This document shows, one piece after another, positions 5,348 through 50,333 of a stretch of DNA of 64,000 nt (the stretch's first letter is position 1; every line of letters begins with the position of its first letter). The translations under genes were made by a program, and so were the position numbers. Below the pieces are notes generated by a model. It did no database searches. It was not told the origin of the DNA and was given only the letters and a program-made list of their open reading frames with translations. Source of the DNA: Candidatus Heimdallarchaeum aukensis (GTDB lineage Archaea > Asgardarchaeota > Heimdallarchaeia > Heimdallarchaeales > Heimdallarchaeaceae); NCBI GenBank assembly GCA_021513695.1, contig CP084166.1, forward strand, positions 1,248,001 through 1,312,000, given 5' to 3'.

Positions 5348-5932
5348 TCAAAAAATTTCTCCTTTTTCTTTCAAAAAAGATTCCACCTCATTTAAGAATG
5401 ACTCTAGTTTATCACTAACACTCATTTCCTTGGCTTTTTCTTTAAGTTCTTCTTTATTTATAATCTCCATGTTTCTTATATAAACGGCGAGAGCATCCTC
5501 ATAATCTTGCTCGGAACCATACTTTAATTTAAAGAGAACGATATTTTGTGGATTGTCAATTTTAATACTAATCCCGTCATATAGTCCAACAATAGATTTA
5601 TCAATGCTTTCTCTCTCCAAAGCTGTGTATACACCCTTAATATCTATTCTAAACATACCATCTTTGTAAAAAATACTACAATGAGTCTGTTCATCAAATC
5701 CCTCAAAATCTTTCAATGTTGCATCGAAATTATTGCTTTTCAAAAAATTGACGAAATCTTCTCTGTCTAGTTTTGTATGATCGACAATAATATCAATATC
5801 CATTGTTAATCGGGATCTTCCAAGAATCAAAACAGAGACACCGCCTACTATTACATATGGAACATTACGTGAGTTGAAATACTCAACTAAGACTTTCAAA
5901 CTTTCTGATATTGGATCATTCAATCTAATCAT
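5348..5932 (-). CDS. Nucleotidyltransferase-fold protein (minimal NTase)
   Basis: VIVGGVSVLILGRSRLTMDIDIIV resembles the GG...G..R.T.DxD signature of pol-beta-superfamily minimal nucleotidyltransferases. Confidence 0.4.
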   Translation of the reverse strand: MIRLNDPISESLKVLVEYFNSRNVPYVIVGGVSVLILGRSRLTMDIDIIVDHTKLDREDFVNFLKSNNFDATLKDFEGFDEQTHCSIFYKDGMFRIDIKGVYTALERESIDKSIVGLYDGISIKIDNPQNIVLFKLKYGSEQDYEDALAVYIRNMEIINKEELKEKAKEMSVSDKLESFLNEVESFLKEKGEIF

Positions 5933-6110
5933 CCTTTGAATTGTTTTCTATAATTTTGGTTTTCTTTAAAGATAAGGCAAATTTAATGAAATTCGATGCT
6001 TCTTTAGTAAGCTGTTCTACTGTAAAATTTCTAGCACGATAAGCTGCTTCCATTACTTCTTTTCTTCGTTGCTTTACTCTTTTTTCATTTGGTTTTAGCG
6101 AAGTTTTCAT
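5925..6110 (-). CDS. Small basic protein overlapping the NTase gene; possible antitoxin/regulator partner
   Basis: 61-aa ORF whose stop overlaps the start of the 5348-5932 gene by 8 nt (translational coupling geometry). No recognisable motif. Confidence 0.25.
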   Translation of the reverse strand: MKTSLKPNEKRVKQRRKEVMEAAYRARNFTVEQLTKEASNFIKFALSLKKTKIIENNSKDD

Positions 6111-6222
6111 TAATTACAAATAGTTTTTTCACTAAATAAATGTTCGTTTGTTTATACCCACTAATTAAATTTTTATATCTAACTAGCAAAAAATTTATTG
6201 AGTTCTAAACCAAATTTAAATT

Positions 6223-8523
6223 ATGTATCTATCATTTTTTTATTCGCAACAAAAAACTAGGCCTTTCACAAAGTTCGTAGAGATAGAACTTGAGAGAGAT
6301 GAGCTGTATAAAGCATTCACTGAACTGGATGAACCTGAAGAGATAAGTAAAAAGTGGATTGTTTTTGCTGAAGATTGTTCAAAACATTTGGCATCAATAA
6401 ACAGTTTAGCTTCCATGGCTTTTGAAAGATTATCAGAAGCTTATTCAGTTGATGAAGATGAAGACGAATCTGTTCTTCCTTTACATAGATTGCTTTATGG
6501 TTCAATTGCCAATCAAATGCTTTCTTTAACCCAATTTCAGCTAAAACTTGGAGTTCTTATATACATTTACTCTCAAGTAAGAAATCGTGGAGTTTTCTCA
6601 TATGCGCCTGAGGATTATCAATACTATTATTATATTCAAGCAAAGGAAACTTTGGACGATGTATTGTATAGAATTATGGAAAAGAAACTTCCTGAGCCCG
6701 CAGAAGAAGGATTTACCCCCACTCCTACAGTAAATGATATGATGAATATAATGTTTCCCTTACTAAAACTAGAGCAGAGAAAAAGGTTAATTCCAATTCT
6801 AAAACAAATCCCTGATCATGACAAAAATCCATTAATTATTAAAAAAATAGGTGACTATGACAGATTACAAGGTATAACTTTAATGTCAAACATTATAGAA
6901 ATTATGGAAAATTCTGCTGTTGATTTCTGGTGGAAAGACCCTATTTCCACCCTTTCAATATTAGATCATGCTTTAGAGCATTTTAATTTAGTAGTAGAGC
7001 TCTGGAAGGAACAACCAGGAGAACTCACTGCTCTAGCTTCAAGAATAGAACAGGATTATATCCCAATTGTTTACGGTTCTCGTTTTATTACACAATCACA
7101 GCATTTTGTTTCGTTAGCAGAAAGTGCGCTGGAGTCATTTGATATCGACTATGCATCCAAATATTATGACCAAGCAATGAAAAAACTTGAAGAAGCTAAA
7201 GAATATTTATTTAAATCTAATAACATTTTAGCAAACCAGCTTTATGAAACAATAAAAAATCAAGAACAAGAAGTTCAAATAATTAGTACGTTAACTAAAC
7301 TTTCTAATTTATTCTCTTTAATTATGAATGATTTAGTTATAGAAAACAAGGAAAAAGCAATTGAATTATGCGATAAAATTAACCAACTAATAAAACTACT
7401 AGAATCTTCTATTCCTATTCCTTATCTATATGGAATTTCAGTTAGTTATGCAGCAGCAGCTTCAGCACTAGTTAAAGTGGTTGAACAAGATGTTTCTTAC
7501 TTAAATATCATAGATCGTTTTATGAGTCAATTTTCTTTTCCTCTCAATTCAATGAAAGAAGCAATTGCAAATATTAACTTGAATTCAATTCGCATAAATG
7601 ACAACAATCCCAGATTAAGCTACTCCTTTCTTCGTGAAATCGAAGAAAATCTCAAATACCTGAAGAAAGCTGTAGAAATGCTTCCTAAATTTCTTAATGA
7701 AAAAGTACTTCAACAAAAGAAAATCAGTGCGATATTATATTATGTAAGATCATACATTGCAGAAAACAAGATTTACATTTATGCTGATAATAACATCGTA
7801 TTAGATTTAATTCTAAGAGCTAGAGCTCATTACTTTGCAAAGAAAGCAGAGCAGCAAATTGCAGATACTGATGAAAAAGAGCTTCTAAGTCTAATTAAAA
7901 ACAGAATCTTAGAAACAAAATCTTCTGGAATTGTTACTGAAACAAATCTTTTGTCTTTAGGATTACAAACAGCTTATAGTAAAACAGTTAGAGATGTTAT
8001 TGAACAAATTCTTTTGTTTTATGACCAAATTGAAAAGCCACCTGAATTCATCTTAGAATCCGTGAAAAACCAGTTTGAAAGTATGACAGAGTTTAAAGAG
8101 TTACTTAACTTAATGGAGCTTGACAACAAGGAACTACTTGCTTTACGTCAAGAAATCACCCTTAAAGGACACGAGATCAATTGGGTTTTTGTTGAGAGAA
8201 GAGAAAGTTTTATTCCAGCAACCAAAAAAATGTTTACAACCATAGAATCTGTGCTTTTAGGAGAACTAGCTGCAGATATGGGAAAGAGAGATGATGCAAT
8301 TAATTACTATACAAAAGCAAAAAAGAATCTATATGAGATAAGTGATATATTAAGCAAAGTAGCGAAATACATTGAAGATAACAAAGAATTACCTAGCTTG
8401 ATCTATACTTTAGCTTTATTCACCCAAGAGAATTTAAATGCTATAAGAGACAGAAGAAAGAGAAATGAAGTTCCTTACAAAGAAATTGTAGGAATACTAG
8501 ATTATCTAATCCTTAACCTCTAA
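6223..8523 (+). CDS. Large all-alpha hypothetical protein (766 aa), first gene of an operon with a GTPase-roadblock gene
   Basis: Long ORF with uniform coding composition and no recognisable catalytic motif; ends 21 nt before the 8545 GTPase gene on the same strand. Confidence 0.5.
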   Translation: MYLSFFYSQQKTRPFTKFVEIELERDELYKAFTELDEPEEISKKWIVFAEDCSKHLASINSLASMAFERLSEAYSVDEDEDESVLPLHRLLYGSIANQMLSLTQFQLKLGVLIYIYSQVRNRGVFSYAPEDYQYYYYIQAKETLDDVLYRIMEKKLPEPAEEGFTPTPTVNDMMNIMFPLLKLEQRKRLIPILKQIPDHDKNPLIIKKIGDYDRLQGITLMSNIIEIMENSAVDFWWKDPISTLSILDHALEHFNLVVELWKEQPGELTALASRIEQDYIPIVYGSRFITQSQHFVSLAESALESFDIDYASKYYDQAMKKLEEAKEYLFKSNNILANQLYETIKNQEQEVQIISTLTKLSNLFSLIMNDLVIENKEKAIELCDKINQLIKLLESSIPIPYLYGISVSYAAAASALVKVVEQDVSYLNIIDRFMSQFSFPLNSMKEAIANINLNSIRINDNNPRLSYSFLREIEENLKYLKKAVEMLPKFLNEKVLQQKKISAILYYVRSYIAENKIYIYADNNIVLDLILRARAHYFAKKAEQQIADTDEKELLSLIKNRILETKSSGIVTETNLLSLGLQTAYSKTVRDVIEQILLFYDQIEKPPEFILESVKNQFESMTEFKELLNLMELDNKELLALRQEITLKGHEINWVFVERRESFIPATKKMFTTIESVLLGELAADMGKRDDAINYYTKAKKNLYEISDILSKVAKYIEDNKELPSLIYTLALFTQENLNAIRDRRKRNEVPYKEIVGILDYLILNL

Positions 8524-8544
8524 AATTTCGATGAATGTGATACT

Positions 8545-9456
8545 ATGAACAAAGAGCTGATCGTCAAAAGAAAAAATGTTCCAGTAAGTATTATTGGCTT
8601 AGAATATTCTGGTAAAACGACATTCCTTAACTGGCTGATTAAACAGCGATTTACTAGACCTAAACCTACTGTAGGTTATAACTTTGAAGTTCTTGAAGTT
8701 GCCAACATGCACATTAACATTTTTGATCTTTCTGGTCATGAAAAGTTTAGAGAAAATATTTGGAAAAACTTTGTTCAATCAAGTGTGGGTATAATCTTTT
8801 TTGTTGATTCTTCTGATAAAAATAAGCTTAAAAAATCAGCAGAGTGGTTCTGGAAAGTTATTAATGAGTGGTTACAAGAGATATATTCTGAATATGCTGT
8901 CTTGTTCATAGCCAACAAAGCAGATCTAAAAAATTCTTTGGATTTGGAAACAATAATAAAAACTTTTGACTTGTATAAAATGTCAAAGTATTCTAATATT
9001 TCTTTTCAAGTTTTTAAGACTTCAATAAAAGAAGAACTTAATATACAGATAGCTTTTCAATGGTTGGTAAACAAACTAAATTCCATTACAAAAAACCAAC
9101 ATGTAGACATTCATGCCTTAATTATCTCTGATAAATTTGCAAACACTTTATACTCATATGATCCTCATAACATTTCCTCTGACCATGAGTTATTATCTGG
9201 CTTTGTCAATGCAATTAGTAGTTTTAGCAACGAATTATTGGGTTATGAAAATCTCAAACTAGTTAGAATTGGTAAATATTATGTCCTTATTTCTCAAGAA
9301 CCTGATTATTCAGTTGCTATTTTTTCACAAAGTGAATCAAATCTCCCTGAAGCAAGAAGAGTAATCTATAACATACACAGAAAAATAAAAGAGGTACAAA
9401 AGAAGATACTTACTACAAAAGATTATCAAGAGATTGTCGAACAATTTATTTCTTAA
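8545..9456 (+). CDS. Arf/Sar1-family small GTPase fused to a C-terminal roadblock/longin-like domain
   Basis: G1 GLEYSGKTT, switch I PTVGYNFE, G3 FDLSGHEKFR (His in place of the catalytic Gln, as in Sar1/SR-beta), G4 ANKADL. The C-terminal ~120 aa show an alternating hydrophobic alpha/beta pattern (HALIISDKFANTLYSY ... KLVRIGKYYVLISQEPDYSVAIF) typical of roadblock/LC7. Confidence 0.75.
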   Translation: MNKELIVKRKNVPVSIIGLEYSGKTTFLNWLIKQRFTRPKPTVGYNFEVLEVANMHINIFDLSGHEKFRENIWKNFVQSSVGIIFFVDSSDKNKLKKSAEWFWKVINEWLQEIYSEYAVLFIANKADLKNSLDLETIIKTFDLYKMSKYSNISFQVFKTSIKEELNIQIAFQWLVNKLNSITKNQHVDIHALIISDKFANTLYSYDPHNISSDHELLSGFVNAISSFSNELLGYENLKLVRIGKYYVLISQEPDYSVAIFSQSESNLPEARRVIYNIHRKIKEVQKKILTTKDYQEIVEQFIS

Positions 9457-9531
9457 AGAAGTTTCTTCCAAAAGAATTATAAAGACTTTTAGAAATGAAA
9501 GATTAAAGTATATTGTATATCAAATGAGAGT

Positions 9532-10119
9532 GTGACGATTATGGAATGTAGATTTTGTAAACTACGAGATATAGAAAACGTTGAAAAAAATGTTTATCAC
9601 TGCAGTCATTGTGGTTACTCTTTTGAAGCGAGTAAGTGGGATATTTTCTACGATACACTTCTTCATATGCCTTTGTCTTCTTGGTTAGTTGCTAGTTTAC
9701 TCTGGGGAAGTGCAATGTTAACTGGAATTGTTTTTGGTGTTGGATTCAACAGTAAATCATTATCAATTACAACGTTGTTTTTGTATTTATATGGTATAAC
9801 AGCAGTTTTATATGGTGGGTCAAAGTCAGCTGACTATTTCCAAGCTTTATGGTTGTACTTCACTCAATGGATTAGAAGAAAAGATCCCCAATGGAATGAA
9901 ATCCTTGAAGAGATAAGAAAAAGAAGAAAAGAGAAGATGGCTAAAAAATCTACAGCATCAGTAGTAGCTACTTCTGGAACACACATAGAAACAGATATTA
10001 GGCCATCAGAGATGAGAATTCCTTACTTATCTGCTTCATTTAAAGCAGGACTTATCACTACGTTATTTGGTGTAATCTTTTCTATTGTTTACGGAGTCAT
10101 TTTTGCTTCTTCAATATAA
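9532..10119 (+). CDS. Membrane protein with N-terminal zinc ribbon
   Basis: CRFC ... CSHCGY zinc ribbon followed by about four predicted TM helices; 75 nt downstream of the GTPase gene. Confidence 0.45.
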   Translation: MTIMECRFCKLRDIENVEKNVYHCSHCGYSFEASKWDIFYDTLLHMPLSSWLVASLLWGSAMLTGIVFGVGFNSKSLSITTLFLYLYGITAVLYGGSKSADYFQALWLYFTQWIRRKDPQWNEILEEIRKRRKEKMAKKSTASVVATSGTHIETDIRPSEMRIPYLSASFKAGLITTLFGVIFSIVYGVIFASSI

Positions 10120-10184
10120 CTTCTTTAATCCTACTTTCTTTTTTTAACTAATTTTTTAAAAATAATTGAATGGAAAATAGGTTG

Positions 10185-11180
10185 TCAAAATTTGTAAGAT
10201 TTGGCCAACCTAAGATATTGTAAAGAGATATTTCTATACTCATTCCGAATTTTTTGTTCAGCACTATTTAAGGAGTGTAAATACATTGAATAATATACCT
10301 TTGACCTCACATAAGCTCTGTAGGATTTGTAGAAATTAACAAAATCTTTTACTTTTGAAGGGCTTTCATTCATCAAAACCAAGTATTTTTCTAATAAATA
10401 ATTAGCTTCTTTTCTTTTATTGTGATAATCTAGATCCATAGCTAGAAATGAAATTTCTTCTAAAATGTCTTGAATTCTTAAACTTTCATTAAATTCAATA
10501 CAATCAAAAATTACTACTTTTCCACTATCTATGAAAATATTTCTTAATTGCAGATCCCCATGTCCATCAATAATTTTACCTTTTTCTAGCCTTGTATCCC
10601 AAAAAAATCTGTTTTTTTCCATAAAATTATACACTCTATCTGCAAATTTTTTGTTAAAAGGAAAATCCTCATAATTCTGTGTAGTTCGAAAATTCTCGTC
10701 CCATTTCTCAAAGATGTTGGAAAAAACGTCTAATTCTTTTCTATAAATATTGTTCTTATGAAATTCAGATATAATCTCAACAATTTTTTCAATTATTACT
10801 TTATCTATGGAATTTTTTTGTATTAGATTGATTAAGAGTTTTTCTTGTGGTATTTCCTTCATTTTCACTAGATACTCAATAACATCACCCTCACCATCAA
10901 TCTTTTTATCTGAAGTAAAAGATACTAAACCCACATATAATTCAGGAGCTAATCTCTTGTTCAGCTCGACTTCTTGTTTACTTGCATTATATCTTTTTTG
11001 TAAAGTTGAAAAATCAAGAACATCTCCAAATTTAATTGTTTTTTTCATTTTATAAGCGAATTGTCCTGTTAAAAAAACCCAACTAACGTTTGTTTCAATA
11101 ACTCTAATTGGTTCTTGAACAGCATGGTTATATGTTACAGGTTTTTTTAACTCATTAACTATAGCCTTTTCTGATAACAT
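10185..11180 (-). CDS. Phosphotransferase (APH/choline-kinase-like protein kinase fold)
   Basis: Catalytic loop HGDLQLRNIFI and metal-binding IFDCIEF (the HGDxxxxN ... D motif of the APH family); overlaps the upstream P-loop kinase gene by 26 nt. Confidence 0.6.
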   Translation of the reverse strand: MLSEKAIVNELKKPVTYNHAVQEPIRVIETNVSWVFLTGQFAYKMKKTIKFGDVLDFSTLQKRYNASKQEVELNKRLAPELYVGLVSFTSDKKIDGEGDVIEYLVKMKEIPQEKLLINLIQKNSIDKVIIEKIVEIISEFHKNNIYRKELDVFSNIFEKWDENFRTTQNYEDFPFNKKFADRVYNFMEKNRFFWDTRLEKGKIIDGHGDLQLRNIFIDSGKVVIFDCIEFNESLRIQDILEEISFLAMDLDYHNKRKEANYLLEKYLVLMNESPSKVKDFVNFYKSYRAYVRSKVYYSMYLHSLNSAEQKIRNEYRNISLQYLRLAKSYKF

Positions 11181-11721: not shown

Positions 11722-14700
11722 TCACCTTTTTTTCTTGTGATCTGGGCAAACGAAAACCTCTTCTGTTTTAAATAATCCTTTTTTGGTCACTTTAATAGCA
11801 TGTTTAGAACAAATGACTTTTCCACAGACATCACAATAGATGATATCATTGTCGCAAACTACATTGTTACAGAACGAACATTGTTTAACATGCTCTGTTG
11901 ACACAACCTCTTTACAGACAGAACATACTGCTGCATGTTTATTACATATCACATCTCCGCTAATTGAACAATATATAGTATGATTTGCACAAAGTGTTCG
12001 ACCACAAACTTCACAATCGTTTGATATTGACACTAATTGCATTTTAGGGGTTTTCTTTTCATAACAAGAATCACATAAGATGCTTATACTGGTTCCCAAA
12101 GTTGATTCAGCTATTCCTCTGATAAGTAATTCGTGACCTTTTTCATTAACTATATTTATTTCTGCTATAGAAACAGGAATGTATATTATTGCCGCATAGA
12201 TGTCTTGGATTTCATTTTGATTCGGAATGCTAAATGATTTTTTCTTGACCAATTTATCAAGATCGTCAAGTACCTCGACTTTTGTTTGAGATTTAATTTT
12301 TCTGTCTAGTTCTTTAACAATTTCCACATCTTTTTCTATTTCAGAAGTATAATTTTTTATAACTTGAGGTCCATATTGTAAAGTTTCAACTGCCTTTTTG
12401 TAACGCTTCACATCTGCGTCTCTTTTATATTTGTACTTATTTGTTACAATTGGTTTTAGTGTTGCATAAATGCTCTTTGCTTCCTCAATCTGAGCTTGAA
12501 ACTTTCTTACTTTGTCTCTTTTTTCAATCATCTTTGCAAAGTATTCATCTCTTTGTTTAGTTAGCTGTTTAATCCATGAATCGATTTTGTCCTTATATTT
12601 CTCTTCTATTTTTACTAACGAATCTTCGATATCTCGCTTCCATTCATCTTCATACATGCTTTTATCCATCCATAGTACATCCTGGAATGATTCAAGAATG
12701 GCTCTTGGTTTTCGTTGAACTTCTATAGTCTGGATGTTCGCAGATGGAGGTGCTATCAAGCTTCCAAGGTTTTTAAGAGGAAGAATAGAAAGGAGTTCTT
12801 CAAAAACATCTTCTGCTTGAAAAGGTATACTTTCTAGTCCCCATATTTTATCTTTTGAATCAAATTCTAATTTGTCCACTAGTGGAAAAATTCTTTTGAT
12901 TGGAAAATCTAAAGTAATTTCTTCCTTAACTACTTCTTCTCCAACCTTGACTTCTATTTCTCTTTTTGCATTTATATTAAAGTCTAACAACAAAAATGGA
13001 ACATAAGCAAGTTGAAGATAGTTTGTTCCTAGGTAGCTGAATTTTTTATCACCAAAAAACTTTGATAAAAGTTCTTTCAAATCAATCTTATCATATTTAA
13101 GATATTGTTTTTTGATTGTTTTAATAGACTTACTAAGATCTATTTTCTTAAGTTTATATTCTTCTTCATATTCTAATTTTTGTTCAGTAAAATCACTTGG
13201 AGTAATGTCTGTACCTATATCAAGTGTTTCTGAAGGGACTTCTGGAAAATCATCAAGTTCTTGCAGTCTTACTTCTGTATCTAAAAGACTTTCAACTTCT
13301 GAAAATTCTTGCAATTTAGACATCTCTTTTTCGATATCATCTAAACTTAATTCTTTTTCAATATCGGAGAAGTCCAAACTATCAATATCATAGCTGTAAC
13401 CATTTACCTCTTTACAAATTGATGGTGGAGGGTTCTTGTAGAGTTTAGACACATCATCATCAGATAAAGCTTTGTGCACTGAATATAACCATCTGGTCTT
13501 GAAACGAATAGGCTTTGGATAATTATCTGGTGAGAGTAGATAAAATTCTCCTGGTTCAAAATTTGGAAGATCATCAAGAATAAATCTTGCTGTTGGATGT
13601 GATTGTATCATTTTTTCTACTGTTCTTAAATCCTGTGGAGCCATGAAACGACCAAAAAAGAATGTGGAGACCTGACCAAAAGCTTTGTAATCTACATCAC
13701 TGATATTTTGTGTCGCAACTAACATTGACACTCCATATTTTCGACCTTGCTTAAATAATAGTTGTAACCATTTTTTCGTTGGAGGATTACGAGGATAAGG
13801 TGGAATTAATCCAGCTAATTCGTCAATATAGAAAATCAGTTGTGGTTCATGGGAAGGGTTAGAAAGCATATAAGTGTATAATCTTTGAGAGATAGTAGAG
13901 ATATAGAGATTTTTCAATTTCTGCGTATTAAGTGTATTAAGATAAATAATTGAGATTCTACATTTTCCTTCATGAGAAGATGTTTTAAGCATTTGAATAT
14001 TCAATTTCGGCCCTAAATTAAAAACTAAAGACTGAGCACCAACGGTTAAGAATTTTATATTCTTCACTAAAGTTTCTTTTTCTTTCTTTTCAAGAAGAGA
14101 GCGGTAAGATTCTGGCAAATAAGCTTCATCTGTATTGATAAGGTCCATTAACATCTTAAAATCTTGAACTAAGATATTTCTTTTCATAAACTCTTCGAAG
14201 AGAGCAGTAAGATAGGCTTTTACTGCTTTACCTTTATTTGAACTTAATTTATATCCAAGTACATCAACTAAATTGGTAGCCATTCCGTCTATAGCTAGTA
14301 TTTTTTCTTCTCTATCCAGCTGAGTTGGAGGAGGAATCAATGGATTTATTGAGAGAGGAATACCCTTTTCTGAAGCTGGAGTAAAAATAACAACTTCAAT
14401 TTTTTCTTTATATTCTTCGTAAAAATCTCTATTTACACCATATTTTTCAAGAGCTTCCCATTCAGCAACCATAGAAAGGCTACTTATATCTCCTTGAGGA
14501 TCGATAATTATAGCAGGAATATTATTTCTAATTGCTTCTTCAATTACAACCTTACAGGCAACAGTTTTTCCACTTCCTGATTGACCAAAAATTGCAACAT
14601 GTTTTTTCAAAGCTTTAGTTGGTAGAGTAACTTCTTCACCTGTTTCCTTACTTTTTCCTAAAGATAATATTGGTGCACTTTTTTCGTCATTCATATTCTT

Positions 14701-14739
14701 CAATATCAATGTGTGGTTGTTATCCTTAAACCTTTCCAA
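11722..14739 (-). CDS. HerA/FtsK-superfamily (DUF87-like) ATPase with a coiled-coil middle region and a C-terminal array of Cys/His zinc-ribbon repeats
   Basis: Walker A HVAIFGQSGSGKTVA followed by AIIIDPQGD (HerA-type), Walker B IFYIDELAGL, VATQNISDV. The C-terminus carries five or more CxxC(x4-5)CxxH units (CEVCGRTLCANH, CSVCKEV, CSFCNNVVCDND, CDVCGKVICSKH). Confidence 0.65.
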   Translation of the reverse strand: MERFKDNNHTLILKNMNDEKSAPILSLGKSKETGEEVTLPTKALKKHVAIFGQSGSGKTVACKVVIEEAIRNNIPAIIIDPQGDISSLSMVAEWEALEKYGVNRDFYEEYKEKIEVVIFTPASEKGIPLSINPLIPPPTQLDREEKILAIDGMATNLVDVLGYKLSSNKGKAVKAYLTALFEEFMKRNILVQDFKMLMDLINTDEAYLPESYRSLLEKKEKETLVKNIKFLTVGAQSLVFNLGPKLNIQMLKTSSHEGKCRISIIYLNTLNTQKLKNLYISTISQRLYTYMLSNPSHEPQLIFYIDELAGLIPPYPRNPPTKKWLQLLFKQGRKYGVSMLVATQNISDVDYKAFGQVSTFFFGRFMAPQDLRTVEKMIQSHPTARFILDDLPNFEPGEFYLLSPDNYPKPIRFKTRWLYSVHKALSDDDVSKLYKNPPPSICKEVNGYSYDIDSLDFSDIEKELSLDDIEKEMSKLQEFSEVESLLDTEVRLQELDDFPEVPSETLDIGTDITPSDFTEQKLEYEEEYKLKKIDLSKSIKTIKKQYLKYDKIDLKELLSKFFGDKKFSYLGTNYLQLAYVPFLLLDFNINAKREIEVKVGEEVVKEEITLDFPIKRIFPLVDKLEFDSKDKIWGLESIPFQAEDVFEELLSILPLKNLGSLIAPPSANIQTIEVQRKPRAILESFQDVLWMDKSMYEDEWKRDIEDSLVKIEEKYKDKIDSWIKQLTKQRDEYFAKMIEKRDKVRKFQAQIEEAKSIYATLKPIVTNKYKYKRDADVKRYKKAVETLQYGPQVIKNYTSEIEKDVEIVKELDRKIKSQTKVEVLDDLDKLVKKKSFSIPNQNEIQDIYAAIIYIPVSIAEINIVNEKGHELLIRGIAESTLGTSISILCDSCYEKKTPKMQLVSISNDCEVCGRTLCANHTIYCSISGDVICNKHAAVCSVCKEVVSTEHVKQCSFCNNVVCDNDIIYCDVCGKVICSKHAIKVTKKGLFKTEEVFVCPDHKKKR

Positions 14740-26378: not shown

Positions 26379-27146
26379 TTAAGCTGAACCTTTTGCAACT
26401 TTTATTCTATGAATAATTATCTCTCTTGTTAGTTGTTCTATCGGTTGTGCTACTTTTTGAACATTAGGTGGTCTTTCTCCTTTTTTCAATCTTCCATATT
26501 CATCAAGTTTTTCTTTTACGTTTGGACTTCGAAGAAGTGACATTAGCTCATTTCTAGCATTTAAACAAGAGATTTCCATTACTCGCATATATGCTTCTCC
26601 TTTATTTTGAGCCAAACCTTTTTCTACCACTAAATCGAGAAAATCATCTGTAGGTCTTCTTTTTTCTGCAGGAAGATCTATTTTGTTTAGTACAATCAAG
26701 AAAGGTAAAGAATTTCCGAGTTCATCCCCTTTAAGTTCAATTAGCTCATCAAGGCTTTCAACATTATCTTGCCACATTTCTTTAGATGGATCAAACATAA
26801 AAATTAGTCCATCTGCTCCTTCAAGGACTACCTTTCTTTGTATATGATGTCTTTTCTGTCCTGCAACTGTCCAAACTTGATATCTTAATTTAGGGACGCT
26901 TACTCCTTGACCTTTAGGCAATTCAAAAGTACTCTGGTCATAAAATATTGTTCTTCCAGAAGGGTCATCAATTTTCTTTAGTGATGAATAGATTGTTTCT
27001 GGATCTTCTACTTTTCTTAACACATTATATACTGTTAACATACTAGTTTTTCCTGCTAAAGAAGGTCCAAAAATAACGATTTTAAGGTAAGGAACACCCG
27101 AAGCATCCACTTTGAAGATATCGCTAATTGATAATTTACTTGACAT
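26379..27146 (-). CDS. MglA-like Ras-superfamily small GTPase
   Basis: KIVIFGPSLAGKTSML, GRTIFYD (switch I Thr), RYQVWTVAGQKRH (switch II), NKIDLP; close to bacterial MglA (KIVYYGPGLCGKTT ... LYTVPGQ ... NKRDL). Confidence 0.75.
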   Translation of the reverse strand: MSSKLSISDIFKVDASGVPYLKIVIFGPSLAGKTSMLTVYNVLRKVEDPETIYSSLKKIDDPSGRTIFYDQSTFELPKGQGVSVPKLRYQVWTVAGQKRHHIQRKVVLEGADGLIFMFDPSKEMWQDNVESLDELIELKGDELGNSLPFLIVLNKIDLPAEKRRPTDDFLDLVVEKGLAQNKGEAYMRVMEISCLNARNELMSLLRSPNVKEKLDEYGRLKKGERPPNVQKVAQPIEQLTREIIIHRIKVAKGSA

Positions 27147-27620: not shown

Positions 27621-28640
27621 ATGTCATTTTACGAATTTAGACGTCGAATATTAGAAGAAAAGAAACGACAACAAAAACAACAAAGTAAAATTGGAGAAAA
27701 AATATCTGCGTCATTTTCACAACCTGAACTAGAGACAGGTAGAACAAAATACAGTGTTGCTTTATTAGGATTGGAAAGAGCAGGAAAAACTTCTTTAGTT
27801 AAGAAGTTATTAAAACAAGACGACATAGTTACACGACCAACCTATGGAGTAAACATTGAATCATATCATTATCGAGATTTAAATTTCACATGTTTTGATC
27901 TTGGAGGCCATGCGCCTTTTAGATTAAGTTTATGGAAAAAGTTTATTGAAAGAGCAGATGGAATTCTATATTTAGTTGATTCTGCAGATAACTCAAAATT
28001 TGAAGAGTCAAAACAAACCTTTTGGCATTATATTAATTTCGCGAAACCTAATAGTCCAGTATTATTCTTAGCAAATAAAAGTGATTTACCTAATTCAAAA
28101 GAATTAGCTGAAATAAATGAATACTTCGAGCTAGATAAATTTCTAAGAAACCTTAGACCTTTTAATGTTAAAAAAATCTCTGCTAAAACTGGACAAGGAG
28201 TTTATGAGGCTTGGGATTGGATGGTCGAGATTCTTTGTGGAGCTCAGCAATGGAAAGTTAAAATTGCTGCAGCAGTATTAACTGATGTTTCTGGAAACAT
28301 TCTTTCAGAAGCTATGTTTGGTAGACCAGATGAACAAGCCCATTTAGCTTCTGATTTTAGAAAACTCAAAGAATTAGCCAAACTGTTTGCTATTGAAGCA
28401 AAAGATAGTATTCAAAGTGTAAAACTTGAAAGCTTATTTAAAAAACACGTCAGCCACGTTAAGCGAGGAGCTTATGCATTATCTGTAATGATAGACCCAA
28501 TTGATCCAGTTACTCGGGCACAACAAATTCAACTTCGGATTTTGGAATATTTCAGCAGAAATGCAAATATAACTCAAGATTCATTAGAAGATGTATTCAT
28601 CAGCAAGTTTCCTCTCGAAGTTGAGAAAGGAATTAGATAA
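27621..28640 (+). CDS. Sar1/Arf-family GTPase fused to a C-terminal roadblock-like domain (first of a tandem pair)
   Basis: ALLGLERAGKTS, TYGVNIE, FDLGGHAPFR (Sar1-type His), LANKSDLP, SAKTGQGVYEAWDWM (Arf-like G5), then a roadblock-like tail KIAAAVLTDVSGNILSE ... AYALSVMIDP. Confidence 0.75.
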   Translation: MSFYEFRRRILEEKKRQQKQQSKIGEKISASFSQPELETGRTKYSVALLGLERAGKTSLVKKLLKQDDIVTRPTYGVNIESYHYRDLNFTCFDLGGHAPFRLSLWKKFIERADGILYLVDSADNSKFEESKQTFWHYINFAKPNSPVLFLANKSDLPNSKELAEINEYFELDKFLRNLRPFNVKKISAKTGQGVYEAWDWMVEILCGAQQWKVKIAAAVLTDVSGNILSEAMFGRPDEQAHLASDFRKLKELAKLFAIEAKDSIQSVKLESLFKKHVSHVKRGAYALSVMIDPIDPVTRAQQIQLRILEYFSRNANITQDSLEDVFISKFPLEVEKGIR

Positions 28641-28643
28641 AAA

Positions 28644-29645
28644 GTGAGAAAAATGAGTAGTTACCTATCATTCCTTAGAGATAAAGTTATCTCCCAAAAA
28701 GGAGAAAAAATACCGCATATAGCAATTTTAGGCCTAGATAAATCTGGAAAGTCTACAACAGTTAATAGATTACTTTTTGGAACTGTGTCGGACGCTAATC
28801 CTCCTCAATCTACTTGCTTCATCAACATTTATTATGGTAAATCTCTGATTAGTGTTTTAGAAGCAGATGAGGAGACAGCAAGAGAAAGCCCCTATTTCCA
28901 AGATATCCTTTCTCAAATTGATGGGGTAATTTTTATTATTGATACTGAAACAAAACGTCATGTAGAAGCTTCTTTTGAATATATTTACAGTTTATTAGAT
29001 AAAATCCCCCAACAAACACCAATGTTATTCTTAGCGAATAAAATGGATATTGAAAATGCTATTCCCTTCGAAGAAATATTATTAGATCCTGCATTTCAAG
29101 TAATAACAGATGACATTAACCGTTCTGTCTCGATCTATGATATTAGTGCAAAAACGGGAGAGAACTTCTACACAGCTTTTGATTGGATAATATCTCGAAT
29201 TACAGGAAGAACACCTTTGAGAGAAGAAGTAACTTTGAAAAGAGTAATTATTTTACAAGAAGGAGGTGTTCCAGCATTTGATCACACATTTGATACAAAG
29301 ATTGAAGAACATGATAGCACTTTACTCGGGGGGTTAATTAGTGCTTTAAACATCATGGCTACAACAATTTTTGAGAGTGAGTCTGTAATGGACATAGTTA
29401 AACTTGGCCATTTCAAGCTAGTTATCAGAAAAATGCAAGGGTGGACAGGGGTTTTATTCGTAAATAGAGATGACAGTGAATCAAAAGCTCAATCTCTCGC
29501 TGAAGAAATATTAAAAGCATTTATTGAAGAAAAAAATAGAAAACCAGATCAAGAACTAGCAAGAGAAACAAAATATGAATTATTGCATAAAATACCAGAA
29601 ATTGCAATATTATTAGATCAAGAATTAGATCAAGAAATTAATTAA
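28644..29645 (+). CDS. Divergent small GTPase-roadblock fusion with degenerate switch II (second of the tandem pair; possible pseudo-GTPase)
   Basis: G1 ILGLDKSGKST and G4 LANKMD are retained, but the DxxG(Q/H) position reads LEADEETARE. C-terminal roadblock-like VIILQEGGVPAF ... FKLVIRKMQGWTGVLFV. Separated from the previous gene by 3 nt. Confidence 0.7.
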   Translation: MRKMSSYLSFLRDKVISQKGEKIPHIAILGLDKSGKSTTVNRLLFGTVSDANPPQSTCFINIYYGKSLISVLEADEETARESPYFQDILSQIDGVIFIIDTETKRHVEASFEYIYSLLDKIPQQTPMLFLANKMDIENAIPFEEILLDPAFQVITDDINRSVSIYDISAKTGENFYTAFDWIISRITGRTPLREEVTLKRVIILQEGGVPAFDHTFDTKIEEHDSTLLGGLISALNIMATTIFESESVMDIVKLGHFKLVIRKMQGWTGVLFVNRDDSESKAQSLAEEILKAFIEEKNRKPDQELARETKYELLHKIPEIAILLDQELDQEIN

Positions 29646-29657
29646 GGAGTTAAAAAA

Positions 29658-30425
29658 ATGATAAATCCAAGTCAAATGAGAGCACCAAAAATGGTCTTTA
29701 GCATTTTTAAAGATTATGGACCAGAAATAGAATTCAACAACACAAGCCTTACAGAAGAGCAAGCTTTAGCACTAGTTATGAGTGGTTTTACACTTGTGGA
29801 AATGAATAGAGATTATAAAGGAAGGTTAGATGGATCAAAGATGCCAAGAATGTTAGGACCCATTCCAGTTCCAGACACAACAATGAAAGCTATCGCGATT
29901 CCTTTCGAAACCAAAATAACTTCCTCTGAAGATGAAAGGATTGCAGAAGCAGGATATAGAGATTGTGTTGTTTTCTTCATTTTTGAGGGTAGTAAATTAA
30001 GAGAAGTATTAGATAGTTATGGAATTGTTGAACCCTATTTCTCTATGATTGCCCGAAGTTTAAGCGAAGAGAAATCTATCACACCAAGCAACTTGAAAAA
30101 GGTCTATGAACGTATGGTTGATATGTTTACAGGCCGAATTCCGCGTATTTTCAAGGTTAATGACGATAACACAGTTAAAGAGATTATTGGTAAAAGGCTT
30201 GAACATGCAGATGCATATCTAATATGTGATTTAGAAAGAAAAAATATGTACATACTATTGTATAACAGTGATATAGATATCTGGAGAAAAAGAGAAATAG
30301 AAAAAGTTTCTTCTGAAGTAAATTCAAAGATGTTTAGAAGTGCATTGAGAAGAAAGTTTGTTACAGATATTGGAGAAATATCACAAATTTTGAATTTACT
30401 AAATATTGAAATTGCTCCTGTATAA
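29658..30425 (+). CDS. Hypothetical protein, third gene of the GTPase-roadblock operon (possible longin/roadblock-like N-terminus)
   Basis: Starts 12 nt after the previous gene; AAGGAG Shine-Dalgarno-like motif upstream; no catalytic motif. Confidence 0.45.
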   Translation: MINPSQMRAPKMVFSIFKDYGPEIEFNNTSLTEEQALALVMSGFTLVEMNRDYKGRLDGSKMPRMLGPIPVPDTTMKAIAIPFETKITSSEDERIAEAGYRDCVVFFIFEGSKLREVLDSYGIVEPYFSMIARSLSEEKSITPSNLKKVYERMVDMFTGRIPRIFKVNDDNTVKEIIGKRLEHADAYLICDLERKNMYILLYNSDIDIWRKREIEKVSSEVNSKMFRSALRRKFVTDIGEISQILNLLNIEIAPV

Positions 30426-41378: not shown

Positions 41379-42137
41379 ATGAGTCAATCAGAGCTCCAGT
41401 TATCAGATATTTTTAGCGTAGATAAAGATGGAAAGCCCACAATCAAAATTGTTCTTTTTGGTCCCACCTTAGCTGGAAAAACCAGTATGCTTACCGTTTT
41501 TAATGCTTTAAGAAGAATGGAAGATCCAGATCTTATTGTAAGTTCTCTTACCAAAATCCAAGAATATGGTCGAACAGTTTTCTTTGATCACTCTGTTTTT
41601 CAAACACCACCTTTCAAAGGTAAGAAATTTGATCGTCTTCGTTATCATCTATGGACAGTTCCTGGGGAAGAGAGACATAAGGCCCAAAGAGATATTGTTA
41701 TGAGAGGTGTAGATGCTGTTTTACTATTTTTAAATTTTGAAAAAACTGCTTGGGATTCAAATGTTAAAACAGTGAAAGAAGCAAAAGCAAAAATAGGAGA
41801 AAAATTCGGGAAAAAGATTCCAGTTGTTGCGTATATTAATAAATCAGACCTTCCTCCTGAAGAGCGTACAGATAAGCGTGCGTTTATTACATTTTTACAA
41901 GATATTGAAGCTATTCCAAAAGAGAATGTTGCAAACTATATTATGACTGGTAGTTGTCTTAATGCTCGTAATGACTTATTAACCATCTTAAAATCAGAAA
42001 ATCGTGATGAATACCTTGAAAATGAAAGATTGAAAACTAGTAAGCGTCCTGATTCAGTTTGGTTAGTGGTACGACCTATTCAAAAGCTTACACAATTAGT
42101 CGTACAGCAAAGAATGGAAGTTCTACAAGGCATATAA
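41379..42137 (+). CDS. MglA-like Ras-superfamily small GTPase (paralog of 26379-27146)
   Basis: KIVLFGPTLAGKTSML, GRTVFFDH, RYHLWTVPGEERH, YINKSDLPPE; matches MglA motif by motif. Confidence 0.75.
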   Translation: MSQSELQLSDIFSVDKDGKPTIKIVLFGPTLAGKTSMLTVFNALRRMEDPDLIVSSLTKIQEYGRTVFFDHSVFQTPPFKGKKFDRLRYHLWTVPGEERHKAQRDIVMRGVDAVLLFLNFEKTAWDSNVKTVKEAKAKIGEKFGKKIPVVAYINKSDLPPEERTDKRAFITFLQDIEAIPKENVANYIMTGSCLNARNDLLTILKSENRDEYLENERLKTSKRPDSVWLVVRPIQKLTQLVVQQRMEVLQGI

Positions 42138-42254: not shown

Positions 42255-43301
42255 ATGCCAATAGAACCAATGACTAAGGCAGTTGGAGTAGATCTCGGTA
42301 CATCAACAATAAAACTAGTGAGTGGGAATCATTCTTATCGGATTCCCTCAGTAATTGGATCACCAAATCCTGGATGGTCAGGAATGGTGCAAGACAAAAG
42401 TTGGTTAAACAACTTAATAATTGAGGATGCAAATGGAAATGACGTTTATATCGGAGAACTCGCTAGATTACAAAGTGAAATACGTAAGTCTTTAGCTAGC
42501 GAGGGTAAAATGAAGTCTATTGAAAATAGTATATTAGCCTTAAAAGCAATTTTAAGTTTAATTATGAAATCCAATTACGAGCAATTTGTTGTTGCAACTG
42601 GAGTTCCTATTGCTACTGGAGTTGAAGAAAGTAAAGAACTAATTAGAGGACTTAAGGGAACCCACGAAATTAAGGTAAAAAATGATGCTACCGGAGAAAC
42701 AAAGCAAATGAAAATACTCGTGGAACAAGCTTTAGTTATGCCTGAGCCTTATGGAACCTATTACAATATATTAAAAACATCTGGAGTTACTACAGCTGTC
42801 GATTCAGTCATTGTAGACATAGGACATGGTACTACGGACATTTTATGTATGTATAATGGGCGTATAATGAGAGCCGCTTCAGGCTCATTAGAGGAAGCAA
42901 CAGATAGCTTAACAAGTGCCCTTTCAAGAGCAATTCAAGAAAAAAGTGGAAAAATCATTCGACCTTTTGATCTTATGAAAACTATAGAACAAGGCAAGAG
43001 GACAATTCTTGCGGGAGGAAAAGTATTAGACATCGGAAGTGCAGTAGATCAATCTATTGAAACTATCTCAGAAGTAATTATTGACGAGACAAATCGATTA
43101 CTAAATAACCTTCCACCTGATGCATGGATAGAAAAAGTTATGGTTACTGGTGGAGGAGCCTACATTTTTGGTAAATACTTAAAACAAGCTTTCTTTGAAG
43201 CAGACATTGTAAAATCGCCAGATGAAGTAATTGTTCCTAAAGATGCAGTAATGTCTAATGCTATTGGTTTTGAAATGATTGCAAAAACAAAAATGAAGTA
43301 A
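42255..43301 (+). CDS. Actin-fold ATPase (MreB/ParM-like actin homolog)
   Basis: Phosphate-1 VGVDLGTSTIKLV, phosphate-2 VDIGHGTTDI, adenosine motif VTGGGAYIFG; AAGGAG Shine-Dalgarno-like motif upstream. Confidence 0.75.
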   Translation: MPIEPMTKAVGVDLGTSTIKLVSGNHSYRIPSVIGSPNPGWSGMVQDKSWLNNLIIEDANGNDVYIGELARLQSEIRKSLASEGKMKSIENSILALKAILSLIMKSNYEQFVVATGVPIATGVEESKELIRGLKGTHEIKVKNDATGETKQMKILVEQALVMPEPYGTYYNILKTSGVTTAVDSVIVDIGHGTTDILCMYNGRIMRAASGSLEEATDSLTSALSRAIQEKSGKIIRPFDLMKTIEQGKRTILAGGKVLDIGSAVDQSIETISEVIIDETNRLLNNLPPDAWIEKVMVTGGGAYIFGKYLKQAFFEADIVKSPDEVIVPKDAVMSNAIGFEMIAKTKMK

Positions 43302-44869: not shown

Positions 44870-47800
44870 TTAAAACTGTCTTTTTCTTAAAATATAGACT
44901 AAAGACATTAAGGTTACAAGCCCAACAAATATTGATGTATAAGGTGTTTTTGTTGGCTCAGTCTCTGTTGGTTCAGTAGGAGCAGTCTTATACAGTATAT
45001 AGTCTGCATCTAGAACATTTCCAAAATCATCTACTGCATATACATGAATAATATTCTTCTCTTGTGTTAAATGATATGGATATATTCTAAATGAAGCAGA
45101 TTTTGCACCAACAGAAAGTTGAACCTCTTCACCATTTAATGTTACTGAAATGTTATTTGCTGAACTCAATTCATCTTTAACAGTAAAGTCGATATAAGCA
45201 CCAGTCATAGCAGAACCGTTTGTCCAACCTCCACTTCCTATCAGAATAGGAGGTGTGCTATCTAGAATAAATTGACCTATGTATTTATCATCAGTAGTTA
45301 ATATTGTAAAAGTATACTTTCCATCTTCTTCAAGTGTCATTGAATATGAATAAGTTCCAGTTCCAGTGCTAGTAAGAGTAACATCTGTTTTTGTTTCTGT
45401 ACCGTTTACATCAACATATGTCACAGAAGCACTTAATGATGTAGAAGCGGGTATGGCTGTAATATCAAAATCAACTTTGTTGTCTGCTCTTGTAGCATAA
45501 ACAACTACTTTATTGTCTGCAAGTAACCACTTAATAAGATTGTCTGCAAAAACAGCATTTGTAGTTCCGTCATTATAATTTTCGACAAAACCTTCTGTAT
45601 CTATAAAGAAGTTAGTTGTACAAACTACTACTCTTCCTCCGTTCTCATTCTCAAAAGCTGCTGCTGTTGCTTCTCCTTCAAATTCTAATAATTCAACAGC
45701 TTTTCCTGTTGTTGTTAAGGAGGTTCCATAATGATCAACTTTGGCTACATTTTCAGTTATTCTGTGAAGATTTTTTACATTTGCAGTAAGAGGTTCTTCA
45801 AAACTATAAAATCCTTCATCTACTTGAATGTCATAAGGCTCAATGAGTTTGTTTACCATTGTAACATTGTTTCCAATAACCAACCCATAATCTGGATCCT
45901 TTGATGCTCCAAGAAGATCAATAAACAATGATCCTCCATTCGCCACATAGTCTTGTATAGCTGTTATTTCATCTGCTGTTAATGCGCCATAAGTTTGAGC
46001 TTTAGTGGATGGAAAATTTGGATAGATGGTATTAAATGGATCAGCGAACCAAATTGCATCGTAATCAGCTAGCAATTCTGAAGTTATTTCTCCTTTAGTT
46101 ATTTCGTTTACTGCTATTCCCTTACTGTTTAGATCTTCAATAAAGTAAATATATTGGCCTAATAAATGGTCCATTCCCCAGTTTGTATGCATCTTTGCTA
46201 GTAAAATTCTCTTTTCTCCAGGTACAACTTTAACTTTTATTATTGTCTCTGCTGTAACTCCTTTAGCTGTTTCAAAAGTTATTTTTCCTTCATAATCTCC
46301 TACAGCAGCATCTAGAGGGACATCAAAGATAAGTTCATAGTTTTTGTCCCAAGGATCTGTTGCTGGGGTGGTATTTAATGTGGCAATTTGAGTAATTGTT
46401 CCTGATAAGACTGGTGTTTTATCTTCCCAAGGAGTAGAAGATACAGATTTAACATAAATAGAAGCATAGAAACCTTGGTTTATCTCTTGATAGAATGGCA
46501 CATCAAGTTCTGGAATAGCCCATAATAGAACTGGAAAACCGCTATCGTTTTTAGGAGCGGCTTTAATTAAGTCTAATGCTTTTCCTAAATCTGGAACTCC
46601 TGCACCAAATTTCAAATAATCTAATCCTTGATCATCAGCTGAAAGCATCATTGCAGTCTTAATCATACCTGCATCATAAGGAATGCTCAATCCTTTTAAG
46701 ACATCAATAAGTACAGCTGCTGCTCCAGTAATTGCAGGAGTAGACATTGAAGTTCCTTGCATAGAAACATAATCAGTAGAACTTGCGATACCACAGCTCA
46801 TAATACCCATACCAGGAGCTGCTAGATCAGGTTTTACATATCCATCAGCAGTAGGACCGACAGAACTGAAATAAGCTTGTCCTTGACCGGTTTGTTTAGT
46901 TGCAGCTACAGAAATACTTTGAGCTTCTGCCCCAGGAGACTCAACTGTATAATAGTTTGTTCCACTATTTCCAGCTGCGACTGCAACAAGAATATTATTT
47001 AGGTAAAGTTCTCTAATCATTGCTTCTTCAGCATCTTGTCCTTCAGTATCTGTTCCACCCCAACTGAGGTTTATTACATTCACAATAGTTCCATTCTCTT
47101 TTAATTCTAGAGCATACTCAAAAGCAGCAATAAAAGCCTCAGGAGGAGCAGGACTTCCTAAGCGTCCTACAAGGATTTTTGCTTCAGGAGCCATTCCTAT
47201 ATATTCAGCATTTCCTACTCCAGCTCCAGCCATAATTCCAGCTGTGTGAGTACCATGTCCATTTTCATCTTCAATACTAGGATCATTAATATCATAACCG
47301 TTTTCCTTGGTAATGAAAGACTTACTTTCTTCCATTATTCTTCCTTGGAAATCAACATGTTGAGTATTAATTCCTGAGTCAATATCATATGCGATAATAG
47401 AGCTTCCCTTATATCCTAAATCCCATAAGAAACTTACATTTAGAATATCAGCTGTCTGCTTAGTCAATTTAATTTTTTCAGCATTAGATACAAGATAGAC
47501 TGGATCTTCTGGTTGCTTAATTTGAGTATATTTAGTATCAGTTAAATCGAAAACATTCTTTACTCCGTCAATTGATTTCAAGTTATCTTTTTCACTTAAC
47601 ATGTCTTCAACAATTACCATTTTTAAATAAGGATAGACTCGTTTTACATCATGTTGAGAGACAAAATTCTCTAATGCTTCAGGATTAGAGAAGTGAATAA
47701 GATATTTTCGCATCGAATCGACAAATGGTTGTTGAATTTCAACTTCTCTGGGTTCAATTGAAACTTCAGAACTTACTTGTTCTGTATTCGCGTGAATTAT

Positions 47801-47911
47801 TGAACCAGATTGTAATAAAATAAGCAATATTGTTATTGTACTGAACACATACATAATCTTTCTGCGGTTCATAATACAAGCTTTTTTGAGATATTCATAA
47901 AGTTTACTCAA
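44870..47911 (-). CDS. Secreted subtilisin-like serine protease (S8) with C-terminal domains and TM anchor (1013 aa)
   Basis: Signal peptide; Asp YDIDSGI, His HGTHTAGIMAG, Ser GTSMSTPAITG; C-terminal TEPTETEPTKTPYTSIFVGLVTLMSLVYILRKRQF. Confidence 0.85.
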   Translation of the reverse strand: MSKLYEYLKKACIMNRRKIMYVFSTITILLILLQSGSIIHANTEQVSSEVSIEPREVEIQQPFVDSMRKYLIHFSNPEALENFVSQHDVKRVYPYLKMVIVEDMLSEKDNLKSIDGVKNVFDLTDTKYTQIKQPEDPVYLVSNAEKIKLTKQTADILNVSFLWDLGYKGSSIIAYDIDSGINTQHVDFQGRIMEESKSFITKENGYDINDPSIEDENGHGTHTAGIMAGAGVGNAEYIGMAPEAKILVGRLGSPAPPEAFIAAFEYALELKENGTIVNVINLSWGGTDTEGQDAEEAMIRELYLNNILVAVAAGNSGTNYYTVESPGAEAQSISVAATKQTGQGQAYFSSVGPTADGYVKPDLAAPGMGIMSCGIASSTDYVSMQGTSMSTPAITGAAAVLIDVLKGLSIPYDAGMIKTAMMLSADDQGLDYLKFGAGVPDLGKALDLIKAAPKNDSGFPVLLWAIPELDVPFYQEINQGFYASIYVKSVSSTPWEDKTPVLSGTITQIATLNTTPATDPWDKNYELIFDVPLDAAVGDYEGKITFETAKGVTAETIIKVKVVPGEKRILLAKMHTNWGMDHLLGQYIYFIEDLNSKGIAVNEITKGEITSELLADYDAIWFADPFNTIYPNFPSTKAQTYGALTADEITAIQDYVANGGSLFIDLLGASKDPDYGLVIGNNVTMVNKLIEPYDIQVDEGFYSFEEPLTANVKNLHRITENVAKVDHYGTSLTTTGKAVELLEFEGEATAAAFENENGGRVVVCTTNFFIDTEGFVENYNDGTTNAVFADNLIKWLLADNKVVVYATRADNKVDFDITAIPASTSLSASVTYVDVNGTETKTDVTLTSTGTGTYSYSMTLEEDGKYTFTILTTDDKYIGQFILDSTPPILIGSGGWTNGSAMTGAYIDFTVKDELSSANNISVTLNGEEVQLSVGAKSASFRIYPYHLTQEKNIIHVYAVDDFGNVLDADYILYKTAPTEPTETEPTKTPYTSIFVGLVTLMSLVYILRKRQF

Positions 47912-50285: not shown

Positions 50286-50333
50286 ATTTCGTTTACTGCT
50301 ATTCCCTTACTGTTTAGATCTTCAATAAAGTAA
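49137..50333 (+). CDS. Thiolase (acetyl-CoA acetyltransferase), copy A, with a junction-derived C-terminal tail
   Basis: Identical to copy B for 382 aa, then reads SFTAIPLLFRSSIK across the duplication junction instead of LGRGDN. Confidence 0.7.
   Translation: MSNEVYIIGTGQTKFGEFFNLNIGDLASEAVNKAIENAGIGKDEIRTLFIGSTVSNSLSQSSIGGICTRSCSLSSNAYRIESGNASGAAAFHHAFLSIKSGLYDVVAVLGIDKLSDYIQNGTIEKILASSIDYQWEYEMGATLTGLYSFLTQAHMEEYGTTLEQLAYIPTKNHQNGVLNPKAQYRYAIPLEKFLNAKRIADPIGRFDVATPCDGAAVVILASERYIENKKPHSYKVKILSSSAGSDTLALQHREKLTELKATRLAVNDAYNKAKISANDINVAEVHDSHPIGEILAIEDLGLVPKGEGGKATVEGLTALNGKITVNPSGGLKARGDPFGATGIAQLIEIVEQIRGNAGKRQVEDVKYGLTQNVMGTGVMSYVSISFTAIPLLFRSSIK

Follow-up and report, generated by a model that had tools for sequence, protein, structure and literature searches.

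Gene layout at the locus

Within the window (the whole stretch of 64,000 nucleotides that was analysed), which comes from the circularised Asgard genome of Ca. Heimdallarchaeum aukensis (PMC8813620) and has a base composition of ~30% G+C throughout, three genes follow one another on the forward strand. The first (6223..8523) encodes a 766-aa all-alpha protein of an uncharacterised family, modelled as a TPR-like alpha-solenoid or helical scaffold. The second (8545..9456) encodes a 303-aa small GTPase in which an Arf-type G domain is followed by a C-terminal domain of the longin/roadblock type, and the third (from an ATG at 9541, or a GTG at 9532, to 10119) a 192-aa Zn-ribbon protein predicted from its Cys motif and hydropathy to reside in the membrane. 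Orthologues of all three proteins, at 41–97% identity, were found in Heimdallarchaeaceae and in 'Heimdallarchaeota' MAGs; as they occur in 24+ genomes, the three ORFs are real genes rather than chance ORFs. Confident AF2 models were obtained for the GTPase and the 766-aa protein from only 22 sequences each.

A sequence-only reading of this DNA had placed an all-helical 766-aa ORF 21 nt upstream of the GTPase on the same strand, and a Zn-ribbon membrane protein after it. Both placements were confirmed: the coordinates hold, the AF2 model of the large protein is all-helical, and the gene that follows the GTPase encodes a CxxC...CxxC pattern together with three hydrophobic segments of TM length. 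The 766-aa ORF ends with a TAA stop at 8521–8523 and the GTPase ORF starts exactly 21 nt later. The intervening spacer (AATTTCGATGAATGTGATACT; 8524..8544, forward strand) contains a GTGAT Shine-Dalgarno-like element and is too short to leave room for a separate promoter in the gap. Together with the common strand, the 21-nt spacer suggests that the helical and GTPase genes are co-transcribed, and the A/T-rich intergenic stretch that precedes the 766-aa gene (6111..6222, forward strand), with TATA-like 'tttttatat' and 'aaaatttatt' sequences, is a candidate archaeal promoter. Stop-codon readthrough joining the two ORFs was considered and rejected: the two are in frame with each other in the window, but in H. 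endolithica a spacer of 22 nt separates them, so that readthrough is not conserved.

Domains of the GTPase

The G1–G5 motifs of the GTPase are intact and conserved in 22 orthologues. They comprise the P-loop GLEYSGKT (aa 18–25, nt 8596–8619), the switch I Thr42 (nt 8668–8670), the G3 motif DLSGH (aa 61–65, nt 8725–8739), the G4 motif NKAD (aa 124–127, nt 8914–8925) and FKTS at the G5 position. The AF2 model (pLDDT 85, pTM 0.84) contains two domains, aa 1–183 and aa 191–302, of which the first (8545..9093, forward strand) was identified as the G domain by Pfam Arf, PDB profile and Foldseek matches and most resembles Asgard ArfR and Arl8. Pfam Arf (PF00025) matches aa 3–177 with an E-value of 3e-32 (111.7 bits versus a cutoff of 22.3), far ahead of SRPRB, Ras and Roc. 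A PDB profile search with 22 orthologues returned the crystal structures of Asgard GerdArfR1 and HodArfR1 as best matches (109–127 bits), followed by human Arl8A/B (100–105 bits) and then Arf1 (~97 bits), the ArfR, Arl8 and Arf matches spanning 86–127 bits overall. In Foldseek searches the G domain reached a TM(target) of 0.81 to 8oum, 8ouk and 1zd9 (Asgard ArfR and Arl8). The best G-domain matches are thus Asgard ArfR/AArf and eukaryotic Arl8 (8oun, 8oum, 8oul, 8ouk; 1zd9, 2al7); ArfR and AArf GTPases have been characterised structurally and in yeast (10.1101/2024.02.28.582541; PMC11914678).

The DLSGH motif had previously been taken as the mark of a Sar1/SR-beta-type switch II. The motif is present in the window GTPase, and a GTPase of the Sar1/SR-beta type, with a role in translocon targeting or COPII-like budding, would share with it both the His after DxxG and the Arf-superfamily fold; the Pfam SRPRB match is significant in itself (E 4e-13), and SR-beta binds a longin-like domain, SRX. 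We nevertheless regard such an identity as very unlikely and have rejected it. His and Gln alternate at this position among orthologues (11 of each in 22 orthologue clusters; seven His and 17 Gln at 24 distinct genome loci), so that the His cannot serve as a signature of Sar1/SR-beta. Arf reaches 111.7 bits and SRPRB 49.6, Sar1 is absent from the top 60 matches of the PDB profile search with the 22 orthologues, in which ArfR and Arl8 rank best, and Sar1 (1f6b) ranks only 38th in Foldseek searches with the GTPase model. Furthermore, the N-terminal membrane elements of these proteins (a TM segment in SR-beta, an amphipathic helix in Sar1) are missing from the window GTPase.

Judged from the aligned orthologues, His and Gln are freely interchangeable at this catalytic switch II position. 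The residue after DxxG would position the catalytic water, a role that either His or Gln may fill in this GTPase family. One orthologue (P0029/L025) reads DISGH, in a DISG context that otherwise occurs with Gln, which suggests, as read without a tree, more than one switch between His and Gln. A paralogue elsewhere in the window (27621–28640) also carries His, as DLGGH. The interchange constitutes a small natural experiment on the relation between the Gln state of Arf and the His state of Sar1/SR-beta.

Only ~10 residues precede beta1 in the GTPase, and this N-terminus is non-amphipathic, with a hydrophobic moment of 0.05 versus 0.27 for an Arf1 N-terminal peptide. Neither an N-terminal amphipathic helix nor a TM segment nor a lipidation Cys was found in the protein. 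According to the authors of the ArfR work, an amphipathic helix at the N-terminus, docked in the GDP form, is the defining feature of the Arf family (10.1101/2024.02.28.582541); with its short, non-amphipathic N-terminus, the window GTPase lacks this feature. Thus, whereas ArfR and Arf couple an amphipathic N-helix to the interswitch toggle, the window GTPase has ten non-amphipathic residues in its place and an extra domain at its C-terminus.

This C-terminal alpha/beta domain (aa 191–302; 9115..9450, forward strand) belongs to the longin/roadblock superfamily. In the AF2 model, DSSP assigns it two strands, a helix, three strands and two helices (b-b-a-b-b-b-a-a), which is the order of the longin topology. 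Since the domain opens with two strands and not with a helix, it departs from the roadblock topology, a-b-b-a-b-b-b(-a). Its only Pfam signal is to Intu_longin_1 (PF19031), the first longin domain of INTU/CCZ1/HPS4, and this sub-threshold signal was obtained in 6 of 11 orthologous C-domains (16.9 bits versus a cutoff of 23.7; best E 5.5e-4). By contrast, Robl_LC7 (PF03259) gave no match at E <= 1 in any of the 11, and a PDB sequence-profile search with the C-domain alone returned nothing, so that a roadblock label could not be upheld by sequence. The 'roadblock-like tail' proposed earlier therefore survives as a fused domain of the longin/roadblock superfamily, although not as an established roadblock.

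Whereas the element order and the sub-threshold Pfam similarity favour a longin, alignment of the full-length protein leads to Gtr/Rag. The best Foldseek match in the PDB (E 2.5e-12, 313 columns) was between the full-length GTPase and S. pombe Gtr from the GATOR1-Gtr-Lam complex (8fw5_D), and full-length alignments to RagA/RagC (6s6a, 6s6d) were also obtained, the Gtr/Rag matches ranging over 299–322 columns. Full-length TM-scores to Gtr/Rag were 0.36–0.42, which indicates that the domain types match in order while their relative orientation differs. Among solved structures, the modelled two-domain layout of the GTPase corresponds to that of the Rag/Gtr GTPases. Pfam Gtr1_RagA (PF04670) did not match the window GTPase at E <= 0.01, and a precomputed Gtr1_RagA match exists for only two of 23 GTPase homologues.

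The comparison with Rag/Gtr (RagA-D, Gtr1/2) and their Ragulator/EGO partners brings out likenesses as well as differences. Both consist of a G domain and a C-terminal alpha/beta domain (a roadblock domain in Rag/Gtr), and both are without a lipid anchor of their own, so that a membrane link would have to come from partner proteins. In addition to its different domain orientation, however, the window protein has a G domain nearer to Arf/Arl8 and a longin-like C-domain order. Rag/Gtr proteins also form obligate heterodimers of paralogues, whereas no paralogue adjoins the window GTPase; a better candidate for such an arrangement lies elsewhere in the window, where two Arf-type GTPases with ~130-aa C-terminal extensions are encoded 3 nt apart (27621–28640 and 28644–29645, forward strand). 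Given these two further fusions, it is fair to call the GTPase studied here the third of its kind in the window, as the sequence-only reading did. The second member of the tandem pair lacks DxxG at G3, reading LEADEE instead, and is thus probably a pseudo-GTPase; the pair as a whole recalls a heterodimer pair of the RagA/RagC kind. A 255-aa ORF without a Pfam match (29658–30425, forward strand) begins 12 nt after it.

Fusions of a GTPase with a longin/roadblock domain have already been described in Asgard archaea, where they often bear an Arf annotation and have a Rag-like structure (PMC10933270). Like the window GTPase, the Rag-like/Arf-like fusions of Tran et al. 2024 (PMC10933270) combine an Arf-annotated G domain with a longin/RB domain and occur as many paralogues per genome. 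One operon-encoded Asgard pair in that study is predicted to dimerise like Gtr1/Gtr2, and the window, with its two further fusions in tandem, resembles MK-D1 and its Rag-like pair in this respect (PMC10933270). The GTPase-RB forms of Lokiarchaeon MK-D1 carry a switch II insert (PMC10933270), which the window GTPase does not have. PMC10933270 does not report a conserved operon in which such a GTPase is joined by a large helical and a Zn-ribbon membrane protein, and text searches of the literature did not find the operon with the present helical and membrane proteins. The GTPase is a member of a known Asgard fusion class, and its conserved partner set is the new element.

Two paralogous ~253-aa GTPases were also observed in the window (26379–27146, reverse strand, and 41379–42137, forward strand); both have long inserts and weak matches to Ras, Roc and Gtr1_RagA. 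An actin-like protein (42255–43301, forward strand; ALP_N and MreB-like_C, E 1e-15 to 1e-18) is encoded 117 nt after the second of these, with which it may form a GTPase-actin-like pair.

The helical and Zn-ribbon proteins

The AF2 model of the 766-aa protein (pLDDT 88, pTM 0.88) contains 25 helices, many of them 20–50 residues long. No Pfam or NCBIfam family was found on the protein. One TPR motif, at ~aa 678–700, was detected in 14 of 22 orthologues (best E 1e-5), with no tandem TPR array visible by sequence in the family, and a PDB sequence-profile search with the family gave no meaningful match. Foldseek returned a single match below 1e-3 (TTC7B, E 4e-4), and all TM-scores were <= 0.16. 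TTC7 (of the PI4KA complex) and Ski3, the best Foldseek matches, are likewise long all-helical repeat scaffolds, but at an E-value of only 4e-4 and a TM-score of 0.12 they show neither global superposition nor sequence homology with the 766-aa protein. The protein is therefore best described, from its model, as a TPR-like alpha-solenoid without a recognisable relative, its similarity to others being generic. DENN, longin, TRAPP, HOPS and GATOR profiles had been suggested as possible identities for it; neither a profile nor a fold match to any of these was obtained.

It was also considered whether the 766-aa protein, instead of being a scaffold or effector, might be a dedicated GAP or GEF of the GTPase with a novel regulator fold. 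The conserved operon arrangement would be the same in either case. In favour of a GAP or GEF, the protein contains invariant charged or aromatic motifs (for instance YSQVRNRGVF, aa 116–125, and WWxDPIS, aa 236–242), and neither a GAP nor a GEF of Asgard Arf-like GTPases is described in the literature searched. Set against this, profile and fold searches revealed no similarity to Sec7, ArfGAP, TBC, roadblock or HOPS/CORVET proteins, nor to DENN or longin regulators; the best-conserved residues are common to distant relatives that have no adjacent GTPase; and the longin/roadblock domain fused to the GTPase is itself the usual platform module of GAPs and GEFs. On balance, a GAP or GEF role seems unlikely, and we favour that of a scaffold or effector.

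A HMMER scan of 1.84 billion representatives with the profile of the 766-aa family identified 58 proteins, most of them 730–780 aa long and aligned end to end at 15–27% identity; the named proteins among them are from Heimdallarchaeota. Rosetta-stone fusions of the helical family with GTPase or longin domains were sought without success, the longer matches being ordinary TPR proteins. None of the six sampled loci of distant family members (15–27% identity) had an adjacent GTPase fusion, which shows that the helical family does not need a neighbouring GTPase gene. Small DUF1922 Zn-ribbon proteins flank the distant members at three of these six loci (L044, 8842–9054; L045, 5450–5635, reverse strand; L046, 2517–2747), and YjbQ at two. 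This hints that the helical protein was linked to a Zn-ribbon partner before it became associated with the GTPase. Homology between the Zn ribbon of the window membrane protein and DUF1922 was considered and dropped, as the scores were those of generic Zn ribbons only. At one distant locus (L041; features noted at 363–1106 and 8275–10521), the helical-family gene is preceded, 3.7 kb upstream, by a gene for a 247-aa Ras/Roc-type GTPase (363–1106); an oppositely oriented 1076-aa gene stands between them, and downstream there is a 748-aa ORF that looks unrelated.

The Zn ribbon of the 192-aa protein is formed by Cys3/6/21/24 (CxxC at aa 3–6 and 21–24; nt 9547–9612). Hydrophobic segments of TM length lie at ~aa 47–69 (9679–9747), 73–94 (9757–9822) and 168–190 (10042–10110), and a basic loop of ~70 aa carries a conserved TDIRPxE motif. 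The membrane topology was assigned from hydropathy alone; on this footing, the positive-inside rule would put the basic loop, and with it the Zn ribbon, in the cytosol. Homologues of the protein were found only in the clade that has the GTPase/helical pair, and its gene adjoins the pair at all loci with a long enough contig. The orientation of the gene varies, being divergent upstream of the pair in L003/L004 and convergent downstream in L007. Such independent flipping in other lineages fits a separate transcription unit, which is the likely state of the gene in the window as well, where the 84-nt spacer 5' of it (9457..9540, forward strand) contains a TATA-like 'ttataaag' that may be part of a promoter of its own.

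Conservation of the gene block and a possible module

Neighbourhoods were compared for six loci found by exact look-up and 32 loci from species-representative genomes. Wherever the contig continues past the helical gene at its 3' end, the GTPase gene comes next in the same orientation, and the helical–GTPase pair is kept in 24 of 24 distinct complete loci, with spacers of 21–93 nt. Conservation of the pair across relatives, which the sequence-only reading had named as one check of its proposal, is therefore well borne out. In L003/L004, a block of exactly two genes (helical and GTPase) is inverted relative to both flanks, which are otherwise as in L002/L005, with the Zn-ribbon and AP endonuclease genes on one side and M24 peptidase, methyltransferase and HypA/B on the other. 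With its flanks left in place, the inverted block indicates that the two genes moved together. The close helical subfamily, the GTPase subfamily and the Zn-ribbon protein also have an identical, narrow phyletic range.

An alternative explanation is that the gene order was simply inherited, without physical or functional coupling, and that the GTPase is one of many independent Asgard paralogues. The pairing is confined to one clade that is only about family-deep, which means that part of the synteny may be inherited; the neighbouring housekeeping genes (M24 peptidase, methyltransferase and HypA/B) are largely syntenic too, and distant members of the helical family are unlinked to GTPases. Co-evolution gave no help in this respect: the raw mirror-tree correlation between the helical protein and the GTPase (r 0.96) equals that with the unrelated neighbouring M24 peptidase (0.95–0.97), and the mirror-tree analysis, with partial correlations of 0.48 (helical–GTPase), 0.55 (helical–Zn-ribbon) and -0.11 (GTPase–Zn-ribbon), was set aside as uninformative. 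By contrast, the inversion of precisely two genes between unmoved flanks, their invariable common strand and short spacers, and their identical phyletic distributions are not what inherited order alone would lead one to expect, and we think it rather improbable that the arrangement reflects nothing more.

In the window, a DUF6036-like nucleotidyltransferase gene (194 aa) overlaps a 61-aa ORF at 5348–6110 (reverse strand). The two look like an inserted toxin-antitoxin-type unit that separates the M24 peptidase gene from the helical gene; in other genera these last two directly abut. Downstream, a 1005-aa HerA/FtsK-like ATPase (11722–14739, reverse strand), which has a long coiled coil in the middle and is rich in Cys at its C-terminus, is syntenic with the three genes in several genomes, together with AAA_33 kinase-like and 331-aa genes.

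The reading we prefer, to which we assign a probability of about one half, is that the three genes form a module specific to Heimdallarchaeaceae, in which a GTPase of Rag architecture, an alpha-solenoid scaffold or effector and a membrane anchor would act as a complex. In this module, the co-transcribed 766-aa protein and GTPase would bind each other, the solenoid serving as a scaffold or effector, or as a regulator, that reads the nucleotide state of the GTPase. The fused longin/roadblock domain may mediate dimerisation or make an intramolecular platform contact with the G domain; longin/roadblock domains mediate contacts of this kind in Rag/Gtr, MglB, SRX and TRAPP. Since the GTPase presumably cannot bind the membrane on its own, the Zn-ribbon membrane protein would be its anchor, by way of a cytosolic Zn ribbon or the basic loop, and the persistent adjacency of its gene fits a membrane-linked module. 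The partners would differ in kind from those of Ragulator: in place of roadblock-domain subunits, the proposed module has an alpha-solenoid and a Zn-ribbon membrane protein.

Asgard archaea have dozens of small GTPases in their genomes, and almost nothing was found, in the literature searched, on what these bind or regulate. A GTPase that never occurs apart from one helical and one membrane protein thus offers a testable lead to partners, and the module could reveal how an Arf/Rag-like switch becomes attached to a membrane without an amphipathic helix or a lipid. If there is no complex, the protein is simply another Asgard GTPase paralogue. A more far-reaching version, which we put forward tentatively and consider doubtful, is that the module is an undescribed archaeal membrane-docked platform, with an Arf-type GTPase of Rag architecture, a dedicated Zn-ribbon receptor and an alpha-solenoid of a new effector or regulator class that has no counterpart in eukaryotes or bacteria. 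If true, it would be an independent Heimdallarchaeial solution analogous to Rag-Ragulator, Arl8-BORC and ARFRP1-SYS1, and could make the partner set of an Asgard Arf-like GTPase identifiable for the first time.

Elsewhere in the window, positions 46100–50288 and 50285–54473 form a perfect tandem direct duplication with a period of 4185 nt, 100% identical except at the junction. The HMG-CoA-synthase-like and thiolase-like ORFs are present twice as a result, and a 1013-aa subtilisin-like protease has a truncated second copy of 606 aa. Either the duplication arose very recently or it is an artefact of assembly/scaffolding.
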